From assembly GCA_038150265.1 (NCBI GenBank), contig JAYOTF010000057.1:1-14253 (forward strand): DNA of 14,253 nt, in the 5' to 3' direction. The translations under genes were made by a program, and so were the position numbers. The DNA comes from Deltaproteobacteria bacterium (GTDB lineage: Bacteria > SAR324 > NAC60-12). Of the stretch, positions 622-14,026 are shown one piece after another. The notes beneath the pieces were generated by a model, which did not search any database, was not told the DNA's origin, and saw only the letters and a list, made by a program, of their open reading frames with translations. Every line of letters starts with the position of its first letter. Within the stretch, counting starts at the first letter, position 1.

Positions 622-871
622 CGAATCCCTGGCATAAGCGGGTGATCATTCTGTTGGGTTGAAAGCCCGATCCCAGGCCCTCCAGACCCGCCTTCTGAAA
701 GAGGGTTTCAGGAAATAAACCGGCTTCCAACTGAATCAGTTTCTTCAGAAAAACGGACTCAACGCTAGCACAGGCCGGGCCCCCTGTAAACCGTCTGCGG
801 GAATGAGGCGCAGCAGCACCGCCTTCCTCACCCATGATTTTTGGCCACTCAAGGGGGCTGCTTCCTGCCAA

Positions 872-893
872 ATTTGTAAAAAATGATACAAAT
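872..893. promoter_or_regulatory. Candidate transcription-factor operator, ATTTGTA-N8-TACAAAT
   Basis: Perfect 7-bp inverted repeat (872-878 / 887-893) inside the only strongly AT-rich patch of the window, in the divergent intergenic region about 95 bp upstream of the operon's first start codon. Confidence 0.6.
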
Positions 894-905
894 CTTCAGA
901 AACGT

Positions 906-941
906 CTCTCTTTTGTGCAAAAAATCTGTATACTCCCCCAA
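906..941 (+). promoter_or_regulatory. Putative sigma70-type promoter of the catabolic operon (-10 TATACT at 929-934; no good -35)
   Basis: TATACT matches TATAAT at 5/6 in AT-rich DNA. The hexamer 17 bp upstream (CTCTCT) is a poor -35. A second short palindrome, TTTTG-TG-CAAAA (911-922), lies in the spacer. Confidence 0.4.
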
Positions 942-988
942 AATTTCTCAAGGCGCGTTGAGCCGCATGATTCGGAATGAGGAGGGAA

Positions 989-2029
989 ATGGCACAGCAA
1001 CTGGGCACACTGGAGGAGCTACCACAGGCGTTTCGAGACGCCATGGATCAGGCTGGCGTGGCTCCGCTCTGGCCCATGATGCGCAACCTCCTGCCGCTGG
1101 GGCAGCCGGCTCCCGTCACCCGTCCGGGGTACTGGAACTTCGAGGCCATCCGCCCACTCCTGCTCCAGGCAGGTGAGCTGACCCCGGTGGAGAAGGCGGA
1201 GCGCCGGGTGCTCGTGCTTTCCGATCCGGGACGAGGCGTCGGCGCCATGCAGGCCACCTCCACCCTCTACGTGGGCCTGCAGCTGCTGCTTCCTGGAGAA
1301 ACCGCTCCGGCGCACCGCCACACTCCCAGTGCCGCCCGGATTCTGGTTGAAGGCTCCGGCGGGTACACCGTCGTGGATGGCGAAAAGCTCCCCATGGAAA
1401 ACGGCGACCTCGTGCTGACTCCCGGAGGCGACATCCATGACCACGGTCACGAAGGCACCGAGCCCGTCATCTGGCTGGATGCCCTCGACCTGCCCCTGTT
1501 TGTGTCCCTCGAAGGCTCCTACGCAGAAGAGGCCACGCTCCAGAAGCCCCACTCGCGTCCGGATGCCTCTCAGCTGGAGTACCGGGCTTCCGGACTCGTG
1601 CCCTCTCGCCAGCGGCACCCCCGGGCTCGGCGCTACCCGATGACCCGCTTCCCGTGGGTCCGGACCGAGCAGACCCTCCGCCACCTGGCCGAATTCCAGA
1701 CCGCTCCGGTCACCGAGGTCGACTACGTCAATCCGGAAACCGGGCAAGACGTGTTGCCCACCATGGGGTTCACGGCCATGATGCTGTCCTCCCACCAGCC
1801 CCACCGACCGGTGCTCCGCTCCGAGAGTGCCGTGTTCCATGTGGTGCAGGGCTCCGGAACCACCCGCATCAACGGCACCCCGGTTTCATGGGGCCCCAAG
1901 GACACCTTTTCGGTGCCCGTCTTTGCTGAACTGGAACACCAGGCCCACACCCCGGAGGCCTTCCTGATTCGGGTCCATGACCGGCCCTTGCAGGAAAAAC
2001 TGGGCTATTACGAGGAGCGCGAGGCATGA
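989..2029 (+). CDS. nagI: Gentisate 1,2-dioxygenase (bicupin, NagI-like)
   Basis: Start taken at ATG 989, after GAGGAGG (979-985). Motifs: 'AGELTPVEKAERRVLVL', 'GLQLLLPGETAPAHRHTP' (HxH) and 'TPGGDIHDHGH' (third Fe His), 'PVIWLDALDLP', 'YVNPETG'. The N-terminus 'LGTLEELPQ..PLWP' resembles my recollection of Ralstonia U2 NagI. The C-terminal cupin lacks the HxH motif. A maleylpyruvate isomerase and a 3HB 6-hydroxylase are in the same operon. Confidence 0.9.
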   Translation: MAQQLGTLEELPQAFRDAMDQAGVAPLWPMMRNLLPLGQPAPVTRPGYWNFEAIRPLLLQAGELTPVEKAERRVLVLSDPGRGVGAMQATSTLYVGLQLLLPGETAPAHRHTPSAARILVEGSGGYTVVDGEKLPMENGDLVLTPGGDIHDHGHEGTEPVIWLDALDLPLFVSLEGSYAEEATLQKPHSRPDASQLEYRASGLVPSRQRHPRARRYPMTRFPWVRTEQTLRHLAEFQTAPVTEVDYVNPETGQDVLPTMGFTAMMLSSHQPHRPVLRSESAVFHVVQGSGTTRINGTPVSWGPKDTFSVPVFAELEHQAHTPEAFLIRVHDRPLQEKLGYYEEREA

Positions 2030-2670
2030 TCGAATTTCACGGATACTTCAGAAGCTCGGCGGCCTACCGCTGCCGGATTGCATTCAACCTGAAGCAGGTC
2101 GACTACACGTTTCACTCGGTCCACCTGCGCCAACAGGTCCAGAACCGCCCGGAGTACGTGGAGCTGAACCCCCAAAGGCTGGTCCCGACTCTGGTGGACG
2201 GAGACCAGGTCCTCACCCAGTCACTGGCCATCATCGAGTGGCTGGACGAGCAGCACCCCGAGCCTCCGCTGCTCCCGGCAGACCCGAACCTCCGGGCCCA
2301 GGTCCGGGCCTTTGCGCAGATCATCGCCTGTGACATCCATCCGATCCAGAACCTGCGGGTTCTGCAGTACCTCCGGAACGAGCTGGGCCAGGACGACGAG
2401 GCGGTCAACCGCTGGTGCCAACACTGGATTGGCGACGGGCTGGCCGCTTGCGAAGCCCTGCTGGCCAAGCAGTCTCACCCAGGTCCGTTTTGCTTTGGAG
2501 CCGACCCCGGACTGGCCGATCTGTGTCTGGTGCCGCAGCTGTTCAATGCCACCCGGTTTGGCGTTGACCTGGAGCCGCTGCCCAGACTCCGGGCCGTGCA
2601 GGCTGCCTGCGACGCCCTTCCTGCTTTTGCCAACGCCCATCCGCTGTCACAGCCGGATGCCGAGCCCTGA
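2026..2670 (+). CDS. maiA: Maleylpyruvate/maleylacetoacetate isomerase (zeta-class GST, NagL role)
   Basis: Zeta-GST motifs 'YFRSSAAYRCRIA', 'LNPQRLVPTL', 'TQSLAIIEWLDE', 'IACDIHPIQNLRVL', C-terminal 'AHPLSQPDA'. The start overlaps the dioxygenase stop (ATGA 2026-2029). Confidence 0.93.
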   Translation: MIEFHGYFRSSAAYRCRIAFNLKQVDYTFHSVHLRQQVQNRPEYVELNPQRLVPTLVDGDQVLTQSLAIIEWLDEQHPEPPLLPADPNLRAQVRAFAQIIACDIHPIQNLRVLQYLRNELGQDDEAVNRWCQHWIGDGLAACEALLAKQSHPGPFCFGADPGLADLCLVPQLFNATRFGVDLEPLPRLRAVQAACDALPAFANAHPLSQPDAEP

Positions 2671-2695
2671 TCCGGGCCGTTGGCGTCACCCCCGT

Positions 2696-2717
2696 TGATG
2701 AGGAATGAGCCTCATCA
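2696..2717 (+). other. Intergenic stem-loop upstream of dctP
   Basis: TGATGAGG-aatgag-CCTCATCA, a perfect 8-bp inverted repeat with no adjacent U-tract. Confidence 0.55.
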
Positions 2718-2743
2718 CGACCCCCACTTTTCAGGAGAGAAAC

Positions 2744-3784
2744 ATGAAGCACCTGACCGCCACCCTCGGGCGCCTGCTGGCGTCGGCCTCCCTCTTGACC
2801 AGCTTGGCCTGGAGCCCCCTGGCGGCCCAAGAGGTCACTCTGAAGATGCACCAGTTCCTGCCGGCGCAAGCAAATGTCCCCAAGTACGTTCTGGACGTCT
2901 GGGCGGACAAGGTGGAGCAGGAATCCGGGGGACGGATTCAGATCGACCGCTACCCCTCCATGCAGCTCGGTGGCAAGCCTCCGGAGCTGGCCAGTCAGGT
3001 CACGGATGGCGTGGTGGACCTCATCTGGACCGTCTGTGGCTACACCCCCGGGCGCTTCCCGCGGACGGAGGTGTTTGAGCTGCCCTTCATGATGACCAAC
3101 GCGGAAGCCACCTCGAAGGCCTACTGGGACCTCCATGAAAAGTACATGAAGGACCAGGACTTCCGGGAGATGCACATCATTGGGGTCTGGGTGCATGGCC
3201 CGGGGCTGATTCACTCGAAGGAGCCCGTGATGACGCTGGCCGACCTGAATGGCGTCAAGCTGCGGGCCCCGACGCGGGTGACCAACATGCTCTTCAAGGA
3301 ACTCGGGGCCACCCCGGTCGGCATGCCGGTGCCTGCGGTTCCGGAGGCCCTCTCCAAAGGCGTGATCGATGCCACCGTGATTCCCTGGGAAGTCACCGGC
3401 GCCCTGAAGGTGGCGGAGCTGGTTTCGAACCACACGACCTTCGGTGCCTCCAGCCTCTACACCACGACCTTCATCTTTGCGATGAACAAGGACAAGTACG
3501 AGTCCCTGCCTGACGACCTCAAGAAGGTCATCGATGCCAACTCCGGACGTGAGATGTCGGGGTGGGCCGGCCGCCTGATGCAGGAGTACGACGAGCCCTC
3601 TCGCCAGATTGCCCTCAAGCGCAACAACAACATCATCACCCTCTCCGATGCTCAGGTGAATGAGTGGCGCCAGGCGTCTCAGCCCATCATTGACAACTGG
3701 GTCAAGGAGATGGACGGCAGGGGCATGAATGGAACGCAGTTGCTGTCGGAAGCACGCGAGCTGATCGACCAGTACTCGAAGTAA
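2744..3784 (+). CDS. dctP: TRAP transporter substrate-binding protein DctP (probably aromatic monocarboxylate binding)
   Basis: Start taken at ATG 2744, after AGGAG. Sec signal peptide MKHLTATLGRLLASASLLTSLAWSPLAA. Motifs 'YPSMQLGG', 'GYTPGRFP', 'FELPF', 'DLNGVKLRAP' (carboxylate-binding Arg), 'EALSKGVIDA', 'MNKDKYESLPDDL'. Followed by dctQ and dctM. Confidence 0.93.
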   Translation: MKHLTATLGRLLASASLLTSLAWSPLAAQEVTLKMHQFLPAQANVPKYVLDVWADKVEQESGGRIQIDRYPSMQLGGKPPELASQVTDGVVDLIWTVCGYTPGRFPRTEVFELPFMMTNAEATSKAYWDLHEKYMKDQDFREMHIIGVWVHGPGLIHSKEPVMTLADLNGVKLRAPTRVTNMLFKELGATPVGMPVPAVPEALSKGVIDATVIPWEVTGALKVAELVSNHTTFGASSLYTTTFIFAMNKDKYESLPDDLKKVIDANSGREMSGWAGRLMQEYDEPSRQIALKRNNNIITLSDAQVNEWRQASQPIIDNWVKEMDGRGMNGTQLLSEARELIDQYSK

Positions 3785-3789
3785 TCCGC

Positions 3790-3863
3790 AAAGGGGCGTC
3801 CGCTGAGAGGACGCCCCTTTCCGGTGTTCCCCTGGGGTTCCCGCCCCCCTTGAACCCTGTTTT
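3790..3863 (+). terminator. Strong hairpin(s) after dctP: partial terminator or mRNA-stabilising structure
   Basis: AAAGGGGCGTCC-gctgaga-GGACGCCCCTTT is a perfect 12-bp inverted repeat (3790-3820). A second, weaker stem GGGGTTC..GAACCCT (3834-3858) is followed by GTTTT. Confidence 0.75.
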
Positions 3864-3875
3864 CACCAAGCTCCC

Positions 3876-4460
3876 ATGCTCCGGATCGTCTTTCAAGGGC
3901 TCGCCCGTGGAGTCGCTATTCTGGGAGGCATCCTCCTGACCTTGCTGATCCTCCTGATCACCATCAGTGTCGTCGGTCGTGCCGGCAACACGATTGCACA
4001 CATGGACTTTCTCAAGGAGAACCTTGCCGGGCTTTCCGACTTCCTGATTGCCTCGGGAGTGGGTCCGGTAGACGGGGACTTTGAGTTGGTTGAGGCCGGA
4101 ATTGCCTTCTCCATCTTTGCCTTCCTTCCCTGGTGTCAGCTCCGTCGCGGACACGCCACCGTGGACCTGTTTGCCCACTGGTACCCTCCGGCCATGAACC
4201 GCGCCATTGAGCTGCTTTCGGAGGTCCTGCTTTCTGCAGTGACCTGCCTGCTGACCTGGCGCCTGTACGAGGGCATGTCCGACAAGCTCCGCTATGGCGA
4301 AACCACCTTCTTGCTGCAGTTCCCCGTGTGGTGGGCGTATGCCGCCAGCCTTGCTGCCGCCCTGGTGGCATCGGTGGTGTCCGTCTATGCCGTGGGCGCC
4401 CGCTACCAGGAGCTTCGGAACCGGCACCTCGCTCCACCCGGAAGCGGAGGTGCCTCTTGA
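3876..4460 (+). CDS. dctQ: TRAP transporter small permease DctQ
   Basis: 194 aa with four hydrophobic segments, 'GDFELVE', 'GHATVDLF' and 'GETTFLLQFPVWW'. Lies between dctP and dctM. Confidence 0.92.
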   Translation: MLRIVFQGLARGVAILGGILLTLLILLITISVVGRAGNTIAHMDFLKENLAGLSDFLIASGVGPVDGDFELVEAGIAFSIFAFLPWCQLRRGHATVDLFAHWYPPAMNRAIELLSEVLLSAVTCLLTWRLYEGMSDKLRYGETTFLLQFPVWWAYAASLAAALVASVVSVYAVGARYQELRNRHLAPPGSGGAS

Positions 4461-5779
4461 CCGCGCTTGAAATCGGAATCGCCTCCTTCCCCGTCCTGCT
4501 CCTGCTGATCTTTCTGCGGATCCCCATTGGGCTCTCGATGATGATCTGCGGACTCGGCGGCCTGGCCCTCCTCACGGGAGGCCCCCACGTGGTGCTGTCC
4601 AAGCTGAAGTCCGAGACCTACTCCACCTTCTCGAGCTACTCGCTTTCCATCATCCCGCTGTTTTTGCTGATGGGACAGTTCTCCACCCTGGGGGGCATGT
4701 CCAAGGCGCTCTTTCGAGCAGCAGAAACGTGGCTGGGGCACCGACGTGGAGGCGTCGCCATGGCAGCCATTGGCGCGTGTGCCGGATTTGGGGCCATCTG
4801 TGGCTCTTCACTGGCCACCGCCGCCACCATGAGCCAGGTGGCGCTGCCGGAACTGCGGCGCTATGGCTACTCCGGAGGCCTTGCCACAGCGACCCTTGCG
4901 GCCGGTGGTACCCTCGGCATCCTCATTCCGCCCTCCGTGATTTTGGTCATCTACGCCATTCTCACCGAGCAAAACATTGCCAAGCTGTTCCTCGCGGCTT
5001 TTGTTCCCGGACTGCTCGCAGCGGTGGGGTACCTGATCACGATCTCCATTTATGTCCGGATGAACCCTGACGCCGCCCAGATGCGCGAGCGGGTTCCCTA
5101 CGGAGAGCGCCTGCAGGCCCTGATTGATGTCTGGCCCGTGCTGTCGGTCTTCCTGGTGGTCGTGGGAGGCATCTACCTGGGCTGGTTCACCCCCACCGAA
5201 GGGGCGGCGGTGGGAGCCGCAGGAACCGGCATCATTGCCTACGCCAATGGGGGATTGAGCCTGAAGAACCTCAAGGACTCCATTCTCTCCACGGCCAACA
5301 GCAGCGCCATGATCTTCTTCATTGTGCTGGGGGCCGCGTTTTACAACAGCTTCCTCGCCCTCTCACAGGTGCCGCAGGAGGTCTCGTCCTTTGTGGTCTC
5401 TCAGGGGTACAGCCCGTGGCTGATCCTCTCCATCATCCTGGTGCTGTACCTCGTGTTTGGCTGTGTCATGGACAGCCTGTCCATGATCTTGCTGACGATC
5501 CCGATCTTCTTTCCCATCATCTCGGAACTCGACTTTGGCCTGACTCCGGAAGAGCTGGCCATCTGGTTTGGGATCCTGGTGCTGATTGTCGTGGAAGTGG
5601 GCCTCATCACCCCCCCTGTAGGGATGAACCTGTTTGTCATCAATACCCTCGACCCTGACACCCCAATGGTCGACACCTACCGGAGCGTGACGCCCTTCAT
5701 TCTCTCTGATCTGATTCGAGTCGTGATCCTGGTGCTCTTTCCAGGCATCACCCTGTTTTTGTTGCGCTGGACCAGCTAA
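4457..5779 (+). CDS. dctM: TRAP transporter large permease DctM
   Basis: True start is probably TTG 4457 (GGAGGT at 4446-4451; TTGA overlap with the dctQ stop), giving 440 aa. DctM motifs 'IPLFLLMG', 'FGAICGSSLATAA', 'GTLGILIPPS', 'FTPTEGAAVG', 'GLITPPVGMNLFV'. Confidence 0.93.
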   Translation: MTALEIGIASFPVLLLLIFLRIPIGLSMMICGLGGLALLTGGPHVVLSKLKSETYSTFSSYSLSIIPLFLLMGQFSTLGGMSKALFRAAETWLGHRRGGVAMAAIGACAGFGAICGSSLATAATMSQVALPELRRYGYSGGLATATLAAGGTLGILIPPSVILVIYAILTEQNIAKLFLAAFVPGLLAAVGYLITISIYVRMNPDAAQMRERVPYGERLQALIDVWPVLSVFLVVVGGIYLGWFTPTEGAAVGAAGTGIIAYANGGLSLKNLKDSILSTANSSAMIFFIVLGAAFYNSFLALSQVPQEVSSFVVSQGYSPWLILSIILVLYLVFGCVMDSLSMILLTIPIFFPIISELDFGLTPEELAIWFGILVLIVVEVGLITPPVGMNLFVINTLDPDTPMVDTYRSVTPFILSDLIRVVILVLFPGITLFLLRWTS

Positions 5780-5805
5780 GGCGTGGTCTGGAAATGGAAA
5801 AAAGG

Positions 5806-7005
5806 ATGAACCAGCAACCGATCATCATTGCCGGCGGCGGCATTGGAGGCCTGACCTGTGCCCTTGGTCTGGCGCAGAAGGGATTTCCTTCAATTGTGCT
5901 CGAACGCGCCTCCAGGCTTGGAGAAATTGGGGCAGGCATTCAGCTCGGTCCCAATGCCTTCCATGCCTTTGACTACCTCGGCGTGGGAGATGCTGCACGC
6001 CAGATGGCCGTGTACATCGACAGCCTCCTGCTCATGGACGCCCTCTCCGGAGCAGAGATCACCCACATCCCCCTGGGCGACGACTTCCGGCAGCGCTTCC
6101 GGAACCCCTACGCGGTGGTGCACCGGGGCGACCTCCATGGCGTCTTCCTCAAGGCCTGTGAAGCCAGCCCCCTCATTCAGCTGCGCACCAGCGCCGAAGT
6201 GGTTGATTACGAACAGCAGGGCAGCTCCGTCACCGCCTTGCTGAAAGACGGGGAGCGCGTCTCCGGAGCCGGACTCGTCGGCGCCGATGGCCTCTGGTCC
6301 AACATCCGCAAGCGGGTCGTGGGCGACTCCGCCCCTCGGGTCTCCGGGCACACGTCTTATCGTTCGGTCATTCCCACCGAGGAGATGCCGGAAAACCTGC
6401 GCTGGAACGCCGCGACGCTCTGGGCGGGTCCGAAGTGCCACATTGTTCACTACCCCCTCTCGGGCTGGAAGGTGTTCAACCTCGTGGTCACGTACCACAA
6501 CAATGCTCCGGAGCCTGTTGCCGGGAAGCCCGTTCCTGTGGAAGAGGTCCACCGGGGCTTTGAGCACATCCATGCCATTCCGCGCCAGATCATTGAACGT
6601 GGCAAGGACTGGAAGCTGTGGGTGCTGTGTGACCGAGACCCCGTGGACGGCTGGGTTGATGGACGCGTCGCCCTCCTCGGAGATGCCGCCCATCCGATGC
6701 TGCAGTACTTTGCGCAGGGCGCCTGCATGGCCATGGAAGACTCCGTCTCCCTGGCCTCGGAAATGGAGGCCCACTCCGGAGACTGGGAAGCCGCCCTGCA
6801 GGCCTACCAGGAAAACCGAGTGGTCCGGACCGCCCGGGTCCAGCTGCAGTCTCGCCTGATTGGCGAACACATCTACCACCCCGGAGGCGCCCACGCCAAG
6901 CTCCGCAATGCCATCATGCAGGCCAAGACGCCCGAGCAGTGGTACGACACCGTGGAGTGGCTCTATGGCGGTTCCGGACTGCGTGGAACGGTCTCTACCA
7001 CCTGA
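5806..7005 (+). CDS. 3-hydroxybenzoate 6-monooxygenase (group A FAD monooxygenase; NagX/XlnD/MhbM-like)
   Basis: FAD fingerprints GGGIGG, 'EIGAGIQLGPNA', 'VGADGLWS' (DG) and 'LLGDAAHPMLQYFAQGACMAMED' (GD). His212, Tyr216 and Gln300 (counting from ATG 5806) match the spacing of the H213/Y217/Q301 active-site residues of Rhodococcus jostii 3HB6H. Alternative start at 5794. Confidence 0.87.
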   Translation: MNQQPIIIAGGGIGGLTCALGLAQKGFPSIVLERASRLGEIGAGIQLGPNAFHAFDYLGVGDAARQMAVYIDSLLLMDALSGAEITHIPLGDDFRQRFRNPYAVVHRGDLHGVFLKACEASPLIQLRTSAEVVDYEQQGSSVTALLKDGERVSGAGLVGADGLWSNIRKRVVGDSAPRVSGHTSYRSVIPTEEMPENLRWNAATLWAGPKCHIVHYPLSGWKVFNLVVTYHNNAPEPVAGKPVPVEEVHRGFEHIHAIPRQIIERGKDWKLWVLCDRDPVDGWVDGRVALLGDAAHPMLQYFAQGACMAMEDSVSLASEMEAHSGDWEAALQAYQENRVVRTARVQLQSRLIGEHIYHPGGAHAKLRNAIMQAKTPEQWYDTVEWLYGGSGLRGTVSTT

Positions 7006-7028
7006 ACTCACTTTCCCCCAACGGACTC

Positions 7029-7796
7029 ATGAAACTACAGGGAACAATTGCGCTGGTCACCGGAGGTGCCAGTGGTTTGGGACGCGCCTCCGCCGAACAC
7101 CTCGCGCATCAGGGCGCCCGGGTCGTGGTGCTCGATCGCTCGGTCGAGGCGGCTCAGGCCGTTGCTCAGCGCCTGCAGGGCCTGGCGGTTCAGGCGGATG
7201 TCTCTGATGAGGCCTCGGTTCAGGCGGCCTTCGACCAGGTCGTCTCCGAGTGGGGGCAGCCGCCTCGCCTCATTGTCAACTGCGCCGGCATCGGCACCGC
7301 CTCTCGCATCCTGCCGCGCGATGGCGGCCTGTCCGTCGACACCTTCCGGCAGACCATTCAGGTCAACCTGATCGGGACCTACATCGTCATGAGCGTCGCC
7401 GCACTGGCTCTGTCTCAGGTAGAGCCTGACTCTGAAGACGGAGAGCGGGGCGTCCTCATCAACACCGCCTCCGTCGCCTTTCAGGATGGTCAGGTTGGGC
7501 AGTCTGCCTATGCGGCCTCCAAGGGCGGAATCGTCTCGCTGGCGCTGCCTGCTGCCCGGGAACTCGCACGCCTCGGCATCCGGGTGATGACCATTGCGCC
7601 CGGACTCTTCCGGACGCCCTTGATGGAGACCCTCCCGGAAGAGGTGCAGCAGGCCATCACCAGCAACATTCCCTTTCCTGCCCGGCTCGGCGCTCCGGAA
7701 GAGTTTGCGGCGCTGGTGGAACACATTGCTCAAAACCCAAGCCTCAACGGTGAGGTCATTCGGCTCGACGGAGCCCTGCGACTTCCTCCTCGATAA
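7029..7796 (+). CDS. SDR 3-hydroxyacyl-CoA dehydrogenase (HSD10/type II-like; CouN/PhdB/Atu1415 role)
   Basis: Start taken at ATG 7029, giving 255 aa. TGGASGLG, Asp at the end of beta2 (NAD preference), NCAGIG, 'ERGVLINTASVAFQDGQVGQSAYAASKGG' (YxxxK), 'IAPGLFRTP', 'LNGEVIRLDGALR'. Confidence 0.88.
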   Translation: MKLQGTIALVTGGASGLGRASAEHLAHQGARVVVLDRSVEAAQAVAQRLQGLAVQADVSDEASVQAAFDQVVSEWGQPPRLIVNCAGIGTASRILPRDGGLSVDTFRQTIQVNLIGTYIVMSVAALALSQVEPDSEDGERGVLINTASVAFQDGQVGQSAYAASKGGIVSLALPAARELARLGIRVMTIAPGLFRTPLMETLPEEVQQAITSNIPFPARLGAPEEFAALVEHIAQNPSLNGEVIRLDGALRLPPR

Positions 7797-7815
7797 GCCT
7801 TTTTTCCAAAAGCCC

Positions 7816-8583
7816 ATGACCTCGTCCATTCTTGAAGTTTCCACCGACGGCAACATCACCTGTGTGGCCATGAACCGGCCTGACAAGCGCAACGCCATGA
7901 GCGACCAGCTCCTTGAGGCCCTGGATGCGTTCTTCTCTCACCCTCCGGAGGGCACCAAGGTGGTGGTCCTTTCCGGAAACGGGGGGCACTACTGTTCCGG
8001 GCTCGACCTGAGCGAACACGTGGCCCGCGATGCTGAAGGCACCATGCGGCACTCCCGGAACTGGCACCGCATCATGGACCTGATCCAGTACGGGGGCCTT
8101 CCTGTGGTTTCGGCCATGAACGGCGCCGTCATCGGCGGAGGACTCGAGCTGGCCACCGCGACTCATGTCCGGATCGCAGAGCCCTCCACGATCTTTCAGC
8201 TTCCGGAAGGGCGCCGTGGGATCTTTGTCGGAGGCGGGGCCTCGGTTCGGGTGGGACGCATCCTCGGAGCCGACCGGATGATTGAGATGATGCTGACCGG
8301 GCGCAAGTACAACGCCGAAGAGGGGCTTCAGCTGGGGCTGACTCACTACGCCGTTGGCGAAGGCGAGGCCCTGCCCCAGGCCCTGGAGCTGGCCCGGAAG
8401 ATTGCCAGCAACGCGAGCCTCTCGAACTACATCATGATCCAGGCCCTGAGTCGCATTGAAGACATGGCCAAGGCTGATGGGCTGTTTGCCGAAAGCCTCT
8501 GTGCCGCGGTCACCCAGACCAGCCCAGATGCCGCGGAGGGCCTGAAGGCCTTTCTGGAAAAACGTCCCCCGGTGTTCCGCTGA
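7816..8583 (+). CDS. Enoyl-CoA hydratase (crotonase family; CouM/PhdE/Atu1417 role)
   Basis: Start taken at ATG 7816, giving 255 aa. 'NRPDKRNAM', oxyanion motifs 'CSGLDL' and 'GGGLE', two catalytic Glu 20 residues apart (codons 8146 and 8206), C-terminal 'EGLKAFLEKR'. Confidence 0.9.
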   Translation: MTSSILEVSTDGNITCVAMNRPDKRNAMSDQLLEALDAFFSHPPEGTKVVVLSGNGGHYCSGLDLSEHVARDAEGTMRHSRNWHRIMDLIQYGGLPVVSAMNGAVIGGGLELATATHVRIAEPSTIFQLPEGRRGIFVGGGASVRVGRILGADRMIEMMLTGRKYNAEEGLQLGLTHYAVGEGEALPQALELARKIASNASLSNYIMIQALSRIEDMAKADGLFAESLCAAVTQTSPDAAEGLKAFLEKRPPVFR

Positions 8584-8628
8584 GCGTCTGGAGCGCTCCT
8601 TCCTGTCACCCCCAACTCAGGAGGCTTC

Positions 8629-10461
8629 ATGGCCCTCAGTTCCGCTTCGCCCGATGGCTACCGGCCCCATCGGGTCATCCGCCACGAGGAGCCGGATGGC
8701 ACCATTCGGCTGACCTCTCCGTATCCCCTGACCGACGTGGCGCCCAACACCGGAGCCTGGCTGCACCGCTGGGCCCAGGAGGCGCCCAACCGCGTGTTCC
8801 TGGCAGAGCGGTCTGGAGACGGCTGGCGCGAACACGGCTACGCAGAGGTGCTGGAACAGGTCCAGGCCCTCGCGGCTTCCTTGCTGGAACGCGACCTTGG
8901 CCCAGACCGCCCGGTGATGGTCCTCTCTGGCAATGGCGTGGACCACGGCCTGCTCTCCCTCGCCGCCCAGTACGTCGGGATTCCGGTCATTCCGCTGGCC
9001 GAGCAGTACTCGCTCATTCCGGAAGCCCTCGGCAACGTTCAGTACATTGCGGGCCTCGTTCAGCCCGGGCTGGTCTTTGCCGCAAAGGCGGGGCCGTATG
9101 CTGCCGCGCTGGGTCTGGACGTCTTTGAGCACGCCGAGAAGGTCAGTGTGGACCCCAGTGGCGCGGGCCAGGCGGTGACAGCCTTTGCGGAGCTGCTCCA
9201 GGGGCGGGCTCCTGCTGAAGTGGAAGCCGCTCACCGTCAGGTCGGTCCGGAGACGCTGGCCAAGATCCTCTTCACCTCCGGCTCCACCTCTCATCCCAAG
9301 GGGGTGCTGACCACACAGAAGATGATGTGCGTCAACCAGGCTCAGCTCCGCAGTGGCCTGCCCCTGCTCACACGTCGTCCTCCCAAGATCCTCGACTGGC
9401 TTCCCTGGAATCATGTGTTTGGAGGAAGCCACAACTTCAACATGATGCTGGCCAACGGAGGCAGCCTCTACATTGACGAGGGGAAGCCCACCAAGGCCCT
9501 GTTTGGCGCCACGTTGCGCAACCAGCTGGAGCATGCCGGCACCCTGATCTTCAATGTCCCGGTGGGCTTTGGGCTGCTGGCTGAGGCCCTGAAGGAAAAC
9601 CAGGCCCTCAAGGAGAAGTTCTTTGCCGAGCTGGAGCTCATCTTCTACGCCGGCGCCTCGCTGCCGCAGGACACGTGGCAGACGCTGGAGCGCTTTGCTC
9701 TCGAAATCCGGGGCGAGCTGCCGATGATGATTTCCAGCTGGGGCATGACGGAAACCGCGCCGGCAACCCTGCTGGTGCATGAGCCCATCCGGCGCTCCGG
9801 TGTCGTGGGGGTGCCGCTTCCGGAAGTGGAAGCCCGGCTGCTGAATGGCGATGACGGCCGCTACGAGCTGCGGGTGCAGGGTCCAAACGTCATGACGGGT
9901 TACTTCAAGGATCCGGAAAAGACTGCAGCGGTTTTTGATGACGAAGGCTTCCTGATCACCGGAGACGCGGTGCGGTTTGTGGATCCGGAGCATCCGGAGG
10001 CCGGCCTGATGTTTGATGGACGGGTCTCGGAAGACTTCAAGCTCCTGACGGGCACGTGGGTGCATGCCAACAAGCTGCGGCTGGAAGCCCTCGCGGCCTT
10101 TGCCGGACTCGTCCAGGATGTCGTCATCACCGGACATGACCAGCAGGAAGTGGGCGTGCTCCTCTTCCCGCACCCCGAGGCGCTGGCCCAGTTTCAGCTC
10201 ACGTCCGGAAGCTTTGGCGACACCCTCACCGATGCCGCCTACTGCGACGCCATCCGTCAGGGGCTTGCTCAGCTATCGGCGCACGCCACCGGTTCCTCCA
10301 CCCGCATCAGCCGGGCCCTGGTTGCCGCGGAGCCGCCTTCGTTTGGCGATGGAGAGATCACCAGCAAGGGCAGCCTCAACATCCGGAAGATCCTCAAGCG
10401 CCGGGGCGACCTGATTGCCCGTTTGTACCACGAGGCCGACCCAGCGGTCATTCGAGCCTGA
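8629..10461 (+). CDS. fcs: Feruloyl-CoA synthase-family (hydroxycinnamoyl/arylpropanoyl)-CoA ligase
   Basis: SD CAGGAGG. 610 aa with the AMP-binding P-loop 'FTSGSTSHPKG', 'DWLPWNHVFGGSHNF', 'GGSLYIDEGKP', 'WGMTET', 'TGDAV', 'FDGRVSEDFKLLTGTWV' and 'GEITSKGSLN', which are characteristic of the Fcs subfamily. The exact substrate is not determinable. Confidence 0.88.
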   Translation: MALSSASPDGYRPHRVIRHEEPDGTIRLTSPYPLTDVAPNTGAWLHRWAQEAPNRVFLAERSGDGWREHGYAEVLEQVQALAASLLERDLGPDRPVMVLSGNGVDHGLLSLAAQYVGIPVIPLAEQYSLIPEALGNVQYIAGLVQPGLVFAAKAGPYAAALGLDVFEHAEKVSVDPSGAGQAVTAFAELLQGRAPAEVEAAHRQVGPETLAKILFTSGSTSHPKGVLTTQKMMCVNQAQLRSGLPLLTRRPPKILDWLPWNHVFGGSHNFNMMLANGGSLYIDEGKPTKALFGATLRNQLEHAGTLIFNVPVGFGLLAEALKENQALKEKFFAELELIFYAGASLPQDTWQTLERFALEIRGELPMMISSWGMTETAPATLLVHEPIRRSGVVGVPLPEVEARLLNGDDGRYELRVQGPNVMTGYFKDPEKTAAVFDDEGFLITGDAVRFVDPEHPEAGLMFDGRVSEDFKLLTGTWVHANKLRLEALAAFAGLVQDVVITGHDQQEVGVLLFPHPEALAQFQLTSGSFGDTLTDAAYCDAIRQGLAQLSAHATGSSTRISRALVAAEPPSFGDGEITSKGSLNIRKILKRRGDLIARLYHEADPAVIRA

Positions 10462-10498
10462 GCCCTTCTTTTTCACCGATTTTCTTGCAGACGACCTC

Positions 10499-11371
10499 AT
10501 GATTGACCTGACCACCCTTAAAGCCATCGACTTTCACACCCATGCAGAAGAGCCCTGCGGGTGCCACGCGGACGACGGTTATGACGAGTTGCAGTCCACC
10601 ATGGCCAAGTACTTTGGGGCCCCCTGGGAGCACCCGCCCACCATTCCGGAAACCGCCCAGCACTACCGGAACCAGAACATCGCTGCCGTCATCTTTCCTG
10701 TTGATGCCGAGCGGGAAACGGGATACCGACGTTACCGGAATGAAGAGGTGGCGGCCCTCGCCGCCGAACACAACGACGTCCTCATTCCCTTTGCCTCCAT
10801 TGACCCCCACAAGGGCAAGCTCGGTGCCCGCGAGGCCCGGAGGCTGGTGGAAGACTTTGGCATCCAGGGCTTCAAGTTTCACCCCACCATGCAGGGGTTT
10901 TACCCAAACGACCGGCTCGCCTACCCGCTTTATGAAGCCATTGCCGAGTCAGGAAAGATTGCCCTGTTTCACACCGGACAGACTGGTGTCGGATCGGGGA
11001 TGCCGGGCGGAAATGGCATGCGGCTCAAGTACTCGAACCCGATGTACCTGGATGACGTCGCCGTCGATTTCCCCGACATGCCGATTGTGATGGCGCACCC
11101 CTCCTTCCCGTGGCAGGAAGAGGCCCTGGCCGTGGCCACGCACAAGCCCAACGTGTACATCGACCTGTCCGGATGGTCCCCCAAGTACTTCCCTCCCATC
11201 CTCGTCCGGTACACGAACACGTTGCTGAAGCGCAAGATGCTGTTTGGCTCCGACTGGCCCATGATCGCCCCGGAACGCTGGCTGAGCGATTTTGAGAAGA
11301 TCGAGATCCGTGAAGAGGTCCGGCCCCTGGTGCTGAAGGAAAACGCCATCCGCTTGCTGGGGCTCTCATGA
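10499..11371 (+). CDS. Amidohydrolase_2-family hydroxyphenyl-beta-ketoacyl-CoA hydrolase (CouO/PhdC/Atu1421-like)
   Basis: Start taken at ATG 10499, giving 290 aa. Metal motifs DFHTH, 'GFKFHP', 'FHTGQTGVGSGMPGG', 'MAHPSFPW', 'YIDLSGWSPKYF', 'FGSDWP'. Adjacent to Fcs, hydratase and SDR, as in cou/phd clusters. Confidence 0.85.
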   Translation: MIDLTTLKAIDFHTHAEEPCGCHADDGYDELQSTMAKYFGAPWEHPPTIPETAQHYRNQNIAAVIFPVDAERETGYRRYRNEEVAALAAEHNDVLIPFASIDPHKGKLGAREARRLVEDFGIQGFKFHPTMQGFYPNDRLAYPLYEAIAESGKIALFHTGQTGVGSGMPGGNGMRLKYSNPMYLDDVAVDFPDMPIVMAHPSFPWQEEALAVATHKPNVYIDLSGWSPKYFPPILVRYTNTLLKRKMLFGSDWPMIAPERWLSDFEKIEIREEVRPLVLKENAIRLLGLS

Positions 11372-13053
11372 GCTACGCGAACCAGGCCCGCCGGACCCTG
11401 CAGGTGCTTCAGGCCACTCCCAACTGGACGCGTCTGCAGGCGTTGCATCCTGAGCTGGATCCGGAGACGGTGCAGGTGATTGTCGAGGAAGCCGCAAAGT
11501 GGGCGGAACAGGTGCTCGCGCCGCTCAACGGCCCCGGAGACCGGGAAGGCTGCACCCTGGAAGCCGGTCGGGTCCAGACCCCCTCCGGCTACCCGGAGGC
11601 CTATCAGCAGTTTGCCGAGTCCGGGTGGCTGGGGATGACCGTCGCTGAGGCCCACGGAGGACAGGGCCTGCCCCTGGTGCTGTATGCCGCCTGTGAGCCG
11701 CTCTTTGAACGCGCGTGCATGGCCTTCATGATGGCCCCCGGCGCCGTCCATGCGGCCATGCACCTGCTGGACTCGGTCGCGGAACCAGCCCTGGCCGAGG
11801 CGTGGATTCCTCGGCTCGCCTCGGGCGAGTGGGCGGCCACGATCTGCATTTCCGAGCCGGACGCCGGTTCCGACGTCGGACGCATCCGGACGCAGGCCAC
11901 CTTGACCGAATCCGGGTGGCGCGTCTCGGGACAGAAGGTGTGGATCTCCTTTGGAGACCATGACCTGTCTGGACGGATTGGACACTGCCTGCTGGCCCGG
12001 ACCGGAACCGAGCCGGGCACGCGCGGCCTGAGCCTGTTCCTGGTTCCGAACCAAACCGACTCCGGCGCCCCCAATGGCGTCACCGTCGCTGGCGTGGAAC
12101 AGAAAATGGGCATTCACGGCTCCCCCACCTGCTCGCTGCTCTTCGACAACGCCGAGGCCGTGCTGCTGGGACAAGCCGAACGTGGGCTGCCTCAGCTCTT
12201 CCGGATGATTGAGATCATGCGCCTGCTTGTGGGGTGTCAGGGACTCGGCATCGCCTCGGGCGCCTGCGAAACCGCTCTTCAGTACGCCCGGGAGCGTCGG
12301 CAGGGGGGCGCGCCTCGGCAAGAAGCGGTCCCGATCCTTCAGCATCCGGATGTGCAGCGTCAGCTCCTGGAGATGGAAAGCCGGACCGAGCTGCTGCGGG
12401 CGACGGTTCTGGAAATGGCCTCGGTGATGGATTTGGCTCGGCTGGAACCCGATGAAGCGCTCCGTGCGTCTTATGCCGACCTCGCGGCCTGGATGCTGCC
12501 CCTGGTGAAGACCTTTGGAGCGGAAACCGGATTTGCGGTCGCCAGTGAGGCCATCCAGGTTCTTGGAGGCGCCGGTTACACACAAGACTGGCCCCTGGAG
12601 CAAGCCGCCCGTGATGTCCGGATTGCTGCCATTTACGAAGGCACCACGGGCATGCAGGCCCAGGACTTTCTGATGAGGCGCCTCTGGCGAGACGAGGGGC
12701 GGGGCCTGACCGCCTTCCTGCAGCAGGCTCGTCAGGACGCGGCTTCCTGCCAGGCTGCTTTTCCGGAAGCCGTGGCACAGGCCGAGCAGGTCTGGCAGGC
12801 GTTTGAGGACCTGAGTACCCAGGCGCGGTCCCTCCGCGAGACGCCTCAGCAGGGAGAAGCGGCCGCCGATGCCTACCTGCGCGCCGGATGGATCGCCGTC
12901 TCCTGCTGGATGGCCCTCCGCCTCCTGCAGACGCCTCAGGGGGCCAGCCTCGCCGAGGCGTTCCTGCTCACGGCGCCAGACGCCTTCCGGGTTCAGGCTC
13001 AACGGACTCGGCTCTCCGCCGCTCTCCTGCGTTCTCGGTACCTGGAGGAATGA
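11368..13053 (+). CDS. Acyl-CoA dehydrogenase (long ~560-aa type; PhdD-like role, arylpropanoyl-CoA -> cinnamoyl-CoA inferred)
   Basis: ATGA overlap with the upstream stop. Motifs 'CISEPDAGSD', 'GQKVWIS', 'EQKMGIHGSPT', 'YARERRQG', 'IQVLGGAGY', 'IYEGTTGMQA' (catalytic Glu). Confidence 0.9.
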   Translation: MSYANQARRTLQVLQATPNWTRLQALHPELDPETVQVIVEEAAKWAEQVLAPLNGPGDREGCTLEAGRVQTPSGYPEAYQQFAESGWLGMTVAEAHGGQGLPLVLYAACEPLFERACMAFMMAPGAVHAAMHLLDSVAEPALAEAWIPRLASGEWAATICISEPDAGSDVGRIRTQATLTESGWRVSGQKVWISFGDHDLSGRIGHCLLARTGTEPGTRGLSLFLVPNQTDSGAPNGVTVAGVEQKMGIHGSPTCSLLFDNAEAVLLGQAERGLPQLFRMIEIMRLLVGCQGLGIASGACETALQYARERRQGGAPRQEAVPILQHPDVQRQLLEMESRTELLRATVLEMASVMDLARLEPDEALRASYADLAAWMLPLVKTFGAETGFAVASEAIQVLGGAGYTQDWPLEQAARDVRIAAIYEGTTGMQAQDFLMRRLWRDEGRGLTAFLQQARQDAASCQAAFPEAVAQAEQVWQAFEDLSTQARSLRETPQQGEAAADAYLRAGWIAVSCWMALRLLQTPQGASLAEAFLLTAPDAFRVQAQRTRLSAALLRSRYLEE

Positions 13054-13069: not shown

Positions 13070-14026
13070 TCAAGGGGCTGGGGGACGAGCAGCAGGCGCA
13101 GGGTTGCGGAGTTCACACAGCTTGTGCGTGTGTTCCGGGCCCAGGCCACAGCACCCTCCAAACACCGAACACCCCTGAGCCTGCCACTGCTGCGCAAACT
13201 CGAGCAGCTGGTCCGGAGGTATGATTTCCTCAAAGTGCCAGTGAGGGGCAGCAAAAAATCCACTGTCCGGATAGGCCGCCAGGATTCCTGAGTGGTAGCG
13301 CTGAATCAGGGCCAGGCAGTCGGCAATGGCGTCCACAGCCGTGTGCATGATGCCCATGCCCTCAAAGTGATAAGAGGCAGCCAGCTCGGTGATCGCTTCA
13401 AATGAGACCGAGGAGTCATGCCAGGACTCCAGTTCGGCATGAGGCGTCGGCCTCCTGGCCGACAGGCCACACCACACGGGCAATGAAGACGCCTGGGCGC
13501 ACTCAAAGAGCGGGATCATTCTGGAAGGGAGGGACATCATCTCCAGCAGCAGCAAATCCAGGCCTTCCTTCTCAAAGAGGGTGATCAGCTCCTGATAGGA
13601 GGCCGAGAGGGTCTCTTCGCTGATGGGGGGCTGCTGCTTGGCGCCCTCGGCGCCCTCCTGGAAGGGGATCACATGCGAAAGCGATCCGGCGATGGCCACC
13701 GGGGCCTGGGCCTGGTTCCGAGCCTCCATCGCCGCCGCAATGTTCCTCTGGTTGATCTCCTGCACCTGGTCGCCCAGCCCGGCAGGCTCCAGCATGAGCC
13801 GGGAACTCGCATAGCTGTTGATCGTGATGACGTCTGCCCCCGCCTCAATGTAGGCCAGGTGCGTCTGGACCAGCGCCTCATAGTCATCAATTGAGGCACA
13901 TCCCGCCCACTGCCCCGGACGCATGGGGGTGCCCCGCCTCTCAAGCTCCGTTGCGACCCCACTGTCAAGAATGATCGGAATCTGGTTGTCGTGCTTGGCC
14001 ACCAGTGCTTCGTAATACTTCGACAT
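13070..14026 (-). CDS. Homocysteine S-methyltransferase family protein (MmuM/BHMT-like TIM barrel)
   Basis: Motifs 'ILDSGVATELERRG', 'HLAYIEAGADVITINSY', 'IAGSL', 'DLLLLEMM', 'AYPDSG', 'GGCCGLGPEH'. G-rich SD (GGGGGAG) upstream. Convergent with the operon, with a 16-bp gap. Confidence 0.88.
   Translation of the reverse strand: MSKYYEALVAKHDNQIPIILDSGVATELERRGTPMRPGQWAGCASIDDYEALVQTHLAYIEAGADVITINSYASSRLMLEPAGLGDQVQEINQRNIAAAMEARNQAQAPVAIAGSLSHVIPFQEGAEGAKQQPPISEETLSASYQELITLFEKEGLDLLLLEMMSLPSRMIPLFECAQASSLPVWCGLSARRPTPHAELESWHDSSVSFEAITELAASYHFEGMGIMHTAVDAIADCLALIQRYHSGILAAYPDSGFFAAPHWHFEEIIPPDQLLEFAQQWQAQGCSVFGGCCGLGPEHTHKLCELRNPAPAARPPAP

Follow-up and report, generated by a model that had tools for sequence, protein, structure and literature searches.

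Gene content and layout of the operon

This article deals with a cluster of 11 genes from the draft genome of an uncultured estuarine Deltaproteobacteria bacterium (SAR324; NAC60-12; assembly GCA_038150265.1), in which genes for the uptake of aromatic acids, for the shortening of a propanoid side chain and for ring cleavage through gentisate stand together. The stretch of DNA analysed, called here the window, is the entire contig C57 (JAYOTF010000057.1, 14,253 bp); the draft assembly to which it belongs comprises 87 contigs with 3.39 Mb in total and is 97.8% complete. The cluster extends from 989 to 13053 with all genes on the + strand, in the order gentisate 1,2-dioxygenase-like cupin (GDO), MaiA, DctPQM (a tripartite ATP-independent periplasmic, or TRAP, transport system), 3-hydroxybenzoate 6-hydroxylase (3HB6H), short-chain dehydrogenase/reductase (SDR), hydratase, ligase, amidohydrolase and acyl-CoA dehydrogenase (ACAD); with the starts chosen, the intergenic gaps are -4, 73, 91, -4, 26, 23, 19, 45, 37 and -4 bp. 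An earlier note on this DNA had described a tight co-directional operon with these functions, and both the families and the gaps of -4 to 91 bp confirm it; only the order in which that note listed the genes differs from the real one. Families were assigned with Pfam and NCBIfam, which support every operon gene:

989..2029, + strand: gentisate 1,2-dioxygenase-like bicupin (GDO), 346 aa; Cupin_2
2026..2670, + strand: MaiA-type (zeta glutathione S-transferase, GST) isomerase; TIGR01262, 294 bits (cut-off 171); GST_N and GST_C
2744..3784, + strand: DctP, TRAP solute-binding protein of the TarP (phenylpropanoid) type; PF03480
3876..4460, + strand: DctQ, TRAP small permease; PF04290
4457..5779, + strand: DctM, TRAP large permease; PF06808; TIGR00786, 301 bits (cut-off 268)
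5806..7005, + strand: 3HB6H, flavin adenine dinucleotide (FAD) monooxygenase; NF006021 equivalog, 581 bits (cut-off 459)
7029..7796, + strand: SDR; PF00106 (adh_short)
7816..8583, + strand: crotonase-type enoyl-CoA hydratase; PF00378 (ECH_1); NF006013, 357 bits (cut-off 232)
8629..10461, + strand: Fcs-like aryl-propenoate/propionate:CoA ligase, 610 aa; PF00501; PRK12582, 645 bits, under the cut-off of 777
10499..11371, + strand: putative CouO/Atu1421-like beta-ketoacyl-CoA hydrolase; PF04909 (Amidohydro_2)
11368..13053, + strand: long ACAD, 561 aa; Acyl-CoA_dh N, M and C domains

Three of the enzymes (3HB6H, MaiA and the hydratase) pass curated cut-offs, and two others, the dioxygenase (TIGR02272) and the ligase (PRK12582), are family members scoring below them. 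GGAGG stands just 5' of the ATG at 989, the MaiA gene overlaps the GDO stop by 4 bp and dctM has a TTG start overlapping the dctQ stop. The gentisate genes form two blocks, GDO-MaiA before dctP and 3HB6H between dctM and the SDR gene. No terminator-like site was found at the + strand gene junctions, save one inside the end of dctM; 6 such sites were observed in all against 9.7 expected by chance, which says nothing either way. The layout is best explained by one transcription unit, its genes presumably co-transcribed, that couples the uptake of cinnamate- or 3-arylpropionate-type acids, the CoA-dependent beta-oxidative loss of two side-chain carbons and ring cleavage through 3-hydroxybenzoate and gentisate.

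Ring-cleavage genes

The best solved relative of the flavoprotein is 4BJY, the 3HB6H of Rhodococcus jostii (E 7e-68), whose active-site His213 and Tyr217, residues whose role is treated in PMC5472690, align to a His and a Tyr in the window protein. Against the model of salicylate 1-monooxygenase the same protein reaches only 121 bits (cut-off 446). The dioxygenase has as its best solved relative 2D40, a putative gentisate dioxygenase (E 1e-69), and its homologues at 71-74% identity occur in MarR/GDO-FAH-MaiA clusters of Rhodobacterales, FAH being the fumarylacetoacetate hydrolase family; these homologues, with 293-298 bits, also lie under the TIGR02272 cut-off. The MaiA-type protein is read as a glutathione-dependent maleylpyruvate isomerase, the context pointing to maleylpyruvate rather than maleylacetoacetate as its substrate.

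Side-chain-shortening genes

Family assignments support the earlier proposal that the second part of the operon belongs to the cou/phd/atu type of side-chain module. The ligase is 55% identical to a Phaeobacter plasmid gene that lies in the same kind of module and is annotated as feruloyl-CoA synthase by the Prokaryotic Genome Annotation Pipeline (PGAP), a ferulate-type label such as the note had foreseen. Homologues of the hydratase show 51-81% identity in those alphaproteobacterial and gammaproteobacterial loci that have one, and 92% in a congener (L002, below). The SDR gene keeps its position in related modules (55-65% identity), and its product is read, by analogy with Atu1415, as a putative aryl-beta-hydroxypropionyl-CoA dehydrogenase; the substrates of both hydratase and SDR are deduced in this way from their relatives and neighbours.

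Many alphaproteobacterial proteins share 80-87% identity with the amidohydrolase, and one of them (84%) is named 4-hydroxyphenyl-beta-ketoacyl-CoA hydrolase in its source. A homologue on a Rhodococcus opacus plasmid, at 63% identity, adjoins genes for an AMP-ligase, an SDR and a MaoC protein. The ACAD, read as a presumptive 3-arylpropionyl-CoA dehydrogenase, is 81% identical to its counterpart in L002 and 76% to that in a second congener (G007); with the ACADs of the related loci from Alphaproteobacteria and Gammaproteobacteria it shares just 28-42% identity.

The TRAP transporter

DctPQM is the sole transporter in the operon. DctP matches PDB entry 7NR2 with E 1e-126, and the best structural match of its AlphaFold model (pLDDT 90.2) is that same entry, TarP_Sse of Sagittula stellata with coumarate (Z 47.9, root mean square deviation 1.2 over 316 residues, 57% identity). 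7NRA, the same TarP_Sse protein with cinnamate, is also among the best structural matches, and the next ones are marine-metagenome proteins "specific for aromatic acid ligands" at 48% identity. Since DctP resembles TarP, the operon's only importer is of the phenylpropanoid type, a type that accepts different ring substitutions. Two tandem DctP genes precede one DctQM pair in the related loci L032 (2576-3610 and 3681-4715) and L045 (2707-3726 and 3834-4832), from Thalassovita and Aestuariivita, and may represent two ligand specificities sharing one permease.

Native origin and congeners

Because the amidohydrolase is so similar to alphaproteobacterial proteins, mis-binning of the contig was suspected. 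Mis-binning or recent transfer from Alphaproteobacteria is ruled out by the six-base palindrome TCCGGA, a signature found in every block of the operon, and by the tetranucleotide correlation of 0.97 between the window and the rest of the genome. The window contains 46 copies of TCCGGA, a density of 3.2 per kb; the genome mean is 2.86 per kb, and five Rhodobacterales loci show 0-0.14 per kb. These figures mark the cluster as native to this lineage.

Within the lineage its distribution is narrow. Among 40 relatives searched, only the two other members of the genus yielded a high-identity amidohydrolase; 22 other genomes of the same family gave none, and 16 genomes of the same order gave a single match, at 39% identity. 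One of the two congeners (locus L002, genome G006) carries the identical 11-gene order on a 217-kb contig, with 81-96% protein identity and a MarR gene divergent from GDO; the 232-aa gene that follows ACAD there encodes an SDR and not an FAH hydrolase. The other, G007, has DctPQM-SDR-hydratase-ligase-amidohydrolase-ACAD without a gentisate gene (L110, contig C7; 76-96% identity), and a separate locus (L111, contig C39) with a major facilitator superfamily (MFS) transporter, MarR, 3HB6H (65%), MaiA (51%) and a different GDO (35%). The gentisate genes of the source genome (G000) and of G006 are of another, Rhodobacterales-like type (72-75% identity) and have no importer besides the TarP-type TRAP system. 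G007 is the unfused state within the genus and the natural comparison for the fused operon.

Census of related loci

From at least 591 relatives, the 80 best loci were surveyed for the neighbourhood of the side-chain module. Since 16 of the 80 loci are shorter than 15 kb, the neighbour counts understate the real numbers. Rhodobacterales and other Alphaproteobacteria commonly carry the core DctPQM-SDR-hydratase-(MarR)-ligase-amidohydrolase-(DUF3237)-ACAD, and the aromatic-ring genes adjoining it were distributed as follows:

3HB6H (74-91% identity): 6 of 80 loci (L002, L027, L045, L068, L072, L073)
Any of GDO, FAH, MaiA or 3HB6H: 17 of 80 loci
Long MobA-like FAD monooxygenase: 7 of 80 loci (L034, L035, L042, L049, L050, L065, L077)
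PobA: 6 of 80 loci (L003, L030, L040, L056, L060, L072)

All five of the Rhodobacterales 3HB6H genes score above the NF006021 cut-off, and five of the six PobA genes above that of TIGR02360. The MobA-like monooxygenase reaches about 1000 bits with NF006144 and matches the Comamonas 3-hydroxybenzoate hydroxylase 2DKH over its full length (E 1e-243); a gene of this kind, of about 630 aa, also lies beside the module on the Phaeobacter plasmid CP104104 (L105, 5058-6971). Two unrelated 3-hydroxybenzoate hydroxylases, 3HB6H or the MobA-like enzyme, flank the module in 13 of the 80 loci. The MobA-like gene and module are usually accompanied by a MarR gene.

The hybrid layout, for which the earlier note could name no characterised counterpart, recurs in the congener in the same order and in five Rhodobacterales genomes in another order, so it is not unique. 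In four of the latter (Marivivens, Aestuariivita and two Nioella genomes) the full order is MarR / GDO-FAH-MaiA-3HB6H-DctPQM-module, which differs from that of the window; in the fifth, Antarcticimicrobium, GDO-FAH-3HB6H adjoins the module and no TRAP genes were found in the flank. Several Thalassovita loci have MaiA adjoining the module and no 3HB6H within the flank, although 3HB6H may lie elsewhere in those genomes. In a FastTree phylogeny built from 68 ligases, 6 changes are required to account for the gentisate link, at least 4 of them forced by starred branches; a count of this kind does not distinguish gain from loss, and genomes that are related do not represent independent cases. A literature search, in which subscription journals were poorly covered, returned no characterised bacterial operon joining this module to 3HB6H and GDO.

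Two further features of the related loci were observed. A DUF3237 gene of about 152 aa directly follows the amidohydrolase gene in 22 of the 80 loci (e.g., L068, 10870-11328; L073, 10874-11332); the window lacks such a gene. L016 and L020 (at about 5190) and L017 (at about 2070) carry, immediately upstream of the module, an FAH-family gene 58-68% identical to the Nioella hydrolase; no GDO or 3HB6H was detected in the flanks of these three loci.

Proposed pathway

The route set out here, its substrates and the order of its ring and side-chain steps included, is built from protein families and gene context. DctPQM would import 3-(3-hydroxyphenyl)propionate (3-HPP) or m-coumarate, and the ligase would form the CoA ester; the dihydro form would be desaturated by ACAD to m-coumaroyl-CoA. 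The hydratase would then add water, the SDR would convert the 3-hydroxy to the 3-oxo intermediate and the CouO-like hydrolase would free 3-hydroxybenzoate together with acetyl-CoA. 3HB6H is expected to convert 3-hydroxybenzoate to gentisate, which the cupin dioxygenase would open to maleylpyruvate and MaiA would isomerize to fumarylpyruvate. The route as first predicted stopped at this compound; its hydrolysis to fumarate and pyruvate may be assigned to an unlinked FAH-family hydrolase. Four FAH-family genes lie elsewhere in the genome, and the best candidate for a fumarylpyruvate hydrolase among them, C8:27978-28673, shares 66% identity with the hydrolase that Nioella encodes within its cluster.

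The wiring of the operon is what specifies the expectation of a 3-hydroxybenzoate-type product; the side-chain module as such is probably tolerant of ring substitution. We lean towards the view that a 3-hydroxybenzoate-type product joins the two halves and that m-coumarate or 3-HPP are the likely substrates, as families and genomic wiring together suggest. That the module yields 3-hydroxybenzoate, as had been claimed from the window, gains backing from comparative genomics, namely the 13 of 80 loci with an adjoining 3-hydroxybenzoate hydroxylase and the gentisate half of G007 with its own MFS transporter.

Evidence against this view and alternative explanations

Several observations weigh against this view. 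Some of them concern the operon itself: the dioxygenase scores 279.5 bits with TIGR02272, under the cut-off of 442.1; no PF01557 (FAH-family) gene was found in the window, where tblastn gave nothing better than E 1.8; and a MarR gene, present in 68 of the 80 related loci, is lacking, neither a MarR domain nor a tblastn match being found in the window and no MarR gene or remnant in the leader (622..988); the operon has no regulator gene. Others concern specificity. The closest solved binding protein binds coumarate, a para-hydroxy compound, and in the DctP alignment no column cleanly splits the binding proteins linked to gentisate genes from the others, the only differences being weak ones at window residues 52 and 72 and at three positions near the C-terminus. 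The window ligase does not group with the other 3HB6H-linked ligases and falls in a 17-row clade (support 97) that holds four of the six PobA-linked modules (L003, L030, L056 and L060). Neither the ligase tree nor the DctP alignment revealed a sequence feature pointing to a meta-hydroxy preference. Finally, a PobA equivalog is encoded elsewhere in the genome, on C3 (679 bits, cut-off 539), and C8 carries LigA, LigB, a LigI-like hydrolase, an oxalomesaconate (OMA) tautomerase and LigK, the genes of protocatechuate 4,5-cleavage; no intradiol dioxygenase was found in the genome. The earlier statement that pobA and pca-type genes are missing therefore holds for the window, where family and tblastn scans found no pobA, van, pca, regulator or FAH-family hydrolase genes, and fails for the genome.

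Given PobA and the LigAB pathway, 4-hydroxybenzoate formed from p-coumarate could also be consumed by this organism. The strongest alternative is accordingly a generalist hydroxycinnamate module, acting mainly on p-coumarate, ferulate and caffeate, that would feed the unlinked PobA and protocatechuate 4,5-cleavage, with the co-located gentisate genes serving 3-hydroxybenzoate or gentisate from another source. The ligase clustering, the resemblance of DctP to the coumarate-bound TarP, the lack of a DctP signature for gentisate-linked modules and the 6 of 80 loci with PobA all fit this explanation as well as the pob and lig genes do. It sits less well with the structure of the operon, which lacks a further importer for 3-hydroxybenzoate or gentisate such as the MFS gene belonging to the stand-alone gentisate locus of G007, and in which 3HB6H is inserted between dctM and the SDR gene with gaps of only 26 and 23 bp. 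The recurrence of two unrelated 3-hydroxybenzoate hydroxylases beside the module also speaks against it, and so does the position of pobA, which stands alone on C3 amid housekeeping genes. On this evidence the generalist module is judged unlikely.

Fu and Oriel reportedly described, in 1998 and 1999, the degradation of 3-phenylpropionate via gentisate in Haloferax sp. D1227. An operon of the present kind might likewise act on unsubstituted 3-phenylpropionate or cinnamate, which would pass through benzoate or benzoyl-CoA to 3-hydroxybenzoate and gentisate. A published account has this strain degrade 3-phenylpropionate, cinnamate, benzoate and 3-hydroxybenzoate via gentisate (PMC4005966), and TarP proteins bind cinnamate. 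In addition, on plasmid pHV4 of Haloferax volcanii (L113, 84955-113809) some 6 kb separate a GDO-like cupin and an FAH gene from genes for a CoA ligase, a 650-aa hydroxyacyl-CoA dehydrogenase, two ACADs and a CouO-like amidohydrolase (41% identical to that of the window); this set plausibly underlies the published Haloferax physiology. The pHV4 proteins are nevertheless only 24-41% identical to those of the window, and no 3HB6H homologue was seen in that stretch. What makes an unsubstituted ring improbable here is that the window, the only part of the genome in which a benzoate 3-hydroxylase was looked for, offers no candidate, all 11 genes being otherwise assigned.

Slightly less probable still is an ortho-hydroxy or 2,5-dihydroxy substrate (o-coumarate or melilotate giving a salicylate that the flavoprotein hydroxylates at C5, or 2,5-dihydroxycinnamate giving gentisate directly): the Thalassovita loci with MaiA and no 3HB6H in the flank would fit a product that is already gentisate, but the window flavoprotein passes the 3HB6H cut-off, falls far short of that for salicylate 1-monooxygenase and retains His213 and Tyr217.

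Weighed against these alternatives, the proposed conversion of a meta-hydroxylated phenylpropanoid to 3-hydroxybenzoate is, as far as sequences can tell, the best-supported reading of the operon. The claim that the route is dedicated to such compounds is too strong, given the grouping of the ligase with PobA-linked modules, the 57% identity of DctP to a coumarate/cinnamate binder and the missing DctP signature.

In the genome as a whole, the genes for GDO, MaiA, 3HB6H, the ligase and the amidohydrolase each occur as a single copy, that of the operon, and other matches to the hydratase, SDR, ACAD and TRAP proteins do not exceed 45% identity. No MhpB-like gene was seen, the only two LigB-family genes in the genome being LigB itself and a DOPA-dioxygenase-like gene, and the best MhpA-family match, on C10, lies below the cut-off. 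At C10:73000-76700 a 550-aa FAD-dependent oxidoreductase (NF006002, 835 bits; partial MhpA-type matches), a metallo-beta-lactamase-fold hydrolase and an FAH-family protein are encoded side by side, and this trio may belong to another aromatic pathway.

Comparison with known systems

In Escherichia coli the mhp route for 3-HPP and 3-hydroxycinnamate hydroxylates and meta-cleaves the ring with the side chain intact. It shares its presumed substrates with the window operon, whose route would instead shorten the side chain first.

The closest parallels to the side-chain module come from systems for para-hydroxylated acids. Region SpG8-1b of Agrobacterium fabrum C58 (Atu1415-Atu1421) encodes a feruloyl-CoA synthase, a crotonase-type hydratase, a hydroxyacyl-CoA dehydrogenase and a final beta-keto-CoA cleaving enzyme (PMC7797058); likened by description and not by direct protein comparison, the window follows the same four-step logic with the same protein classes. 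In A. fabrum ferulate is converted to vanillate and, via a tetrahydrofolate-dependent demethylase, to protocatechuate, under the repressors HcaR (MarR type) and Atu1419 according to that account, whereas the window has neither demethylase nor regulator and adds the TRAP importer, ACAD and 3HB6H/GDO/MaiA. The cou genes of R. jostii RHA1 and the phd genes of Corynebacterium glutamicum resemble the window in their CoA-dependent beta-oxidative deacetylation with a CouO-type final step (PMC9618137; PMC12125101), a likeness drawn from described function. Elimination of acetyl-CoA by a beta-ketoacyl-CoA hydrolase is the activity ascribed to CouO-type enzymes (PMC9618137), and the R. jostii cou genes are described as repressed by the MarR-type CouR, with p-coumaroyl-CoA as its ligand (PMC4737184). 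The known cou and phd substrates are para-hydroxylated and their products lead to protocatechuate, whereas the wiring of the window points to gentisate; the window also lacks the MarR-type repressor (CouR, HcaR, PhdR) typical of cou, atu and phd clusters. In the one actinobacterial cluster inspected, that of the R. opacus plasmid, a MaoC-type dehydratase takes the place of the crotonase.

The ring-cleavage part resembles stand-alone gentisate clusters (the G007 locus and the mhb and gen clusters), in which 3HB6H, a glutathione-type isomerase and GDO occur together. Those clusters come with a transporter and a regulator, and in most cases also with an FAH hydrolase, whereas the gentisate genes of the window are without these and are split round the TRAP genes.

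Precedents for the combined logic exist outside the known operons. Haloferax sp. D1227, in which 3-phenylpropionate and cinnamate are degraded via gentisate (PMC4005966), provides a physiological precedent for feeding phenylpropanoid side-chain shortening into gentisate, but it is an archaeon and the ring is unsubstituted. Experiments with Aspergillus niger have shown that CoA-dependent beta-oxidation turns m-coumaric acid into m-hydroxybenzoic acid (PMC12388069). This fungus differs from the window in being a eukaryote that uses peroxisomal fatty-acid-type enzymes (oxidase, thiolase and thioesterases), with no amidohydrolase, operon or tie to gentisate. Halomonas IMPC is described as converting m-coumarate to the corresponding benzoate. 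The fused side-chain-shortening and gentisate-cleavage operon is best called a variant on known systems and not a new kind of system.

Setting of the operon

The operon occupies most of the contig and is bordered as follows:

1-621, divergent from the operon: S-adenosylmethionine (SAM) methyltransferase gene, upstream flank
622..988, 367 bp: leader and presumed promoter region, between the divergent methyltransferase gene and the GDO gene
13070-14026, convergent: homocysteine S-methyltransferase gene, 16 bp downstream of the operon

In the leader no sigma-70 consensus site and no inverted repeat or palindrome was found, nor does its nucleotide sequence resemble the leader that carries MarR in the congener L002; an Rfam search found no family. 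The two fused operons of the genus differ in their flanks, the window having methyltransferase genes on both sides and L002 a MarR gene that diverges on the upstream side, with genes for SDR, HAD and UvrD proteins on the downstream side, which indicates that the cluster moved or that its surroundings were rearranged.

Significance

If the proposed pathway is correct, bacteria would possess a second route for 3-HPP and m-coumarate beside mhp, one in which the side chain is removed first and the ring is then cleaved through gentisate. Both compounds are common products of the microbial breakdown of caffeate and flavonoids, and the automated labels "feruloyl-CoA synthase" and "amidohydrolase family protein" hide such a route. 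A test of this hypothesis would be inexpensive, since the hybrid layout occurs in several cultured Rhodobacterales (Nioella sediminis JS7-11, N. nitratireducens SSW136 and Antarcticimicrobium luteum 318-1).

The census, with 3-hydroxybenzoate hydroxylases in 13 of 80 loci and PobA in 6, is relevant to the interpretation of the module's abundant marine copies. It suggests that the label "feruloyl-CoA synthase" names the wrong substrate for many marine modules. A broader proposition, possible but on present evidence doubtful, is that the module widespread in marine Alphaproteobacteria, and carried by this estuarine lineage too, is in many lineages a route for meta-hydroxylated phenylpropanoids and not for lignin-type para-hydroxy acids, and that it was wired repeatedly and independently to 3HB6H, leading to gentisate, or to the MobA-like enzyme, leading to protocatechuate. 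The substrate assigned to the module affects how the turnover of plant-derived aromatics in estuaries is estimated, and if the meta-hydroxy reading of the widespread module were true, it would reveal an overlooked class of aromatic substrates in coastal waters.

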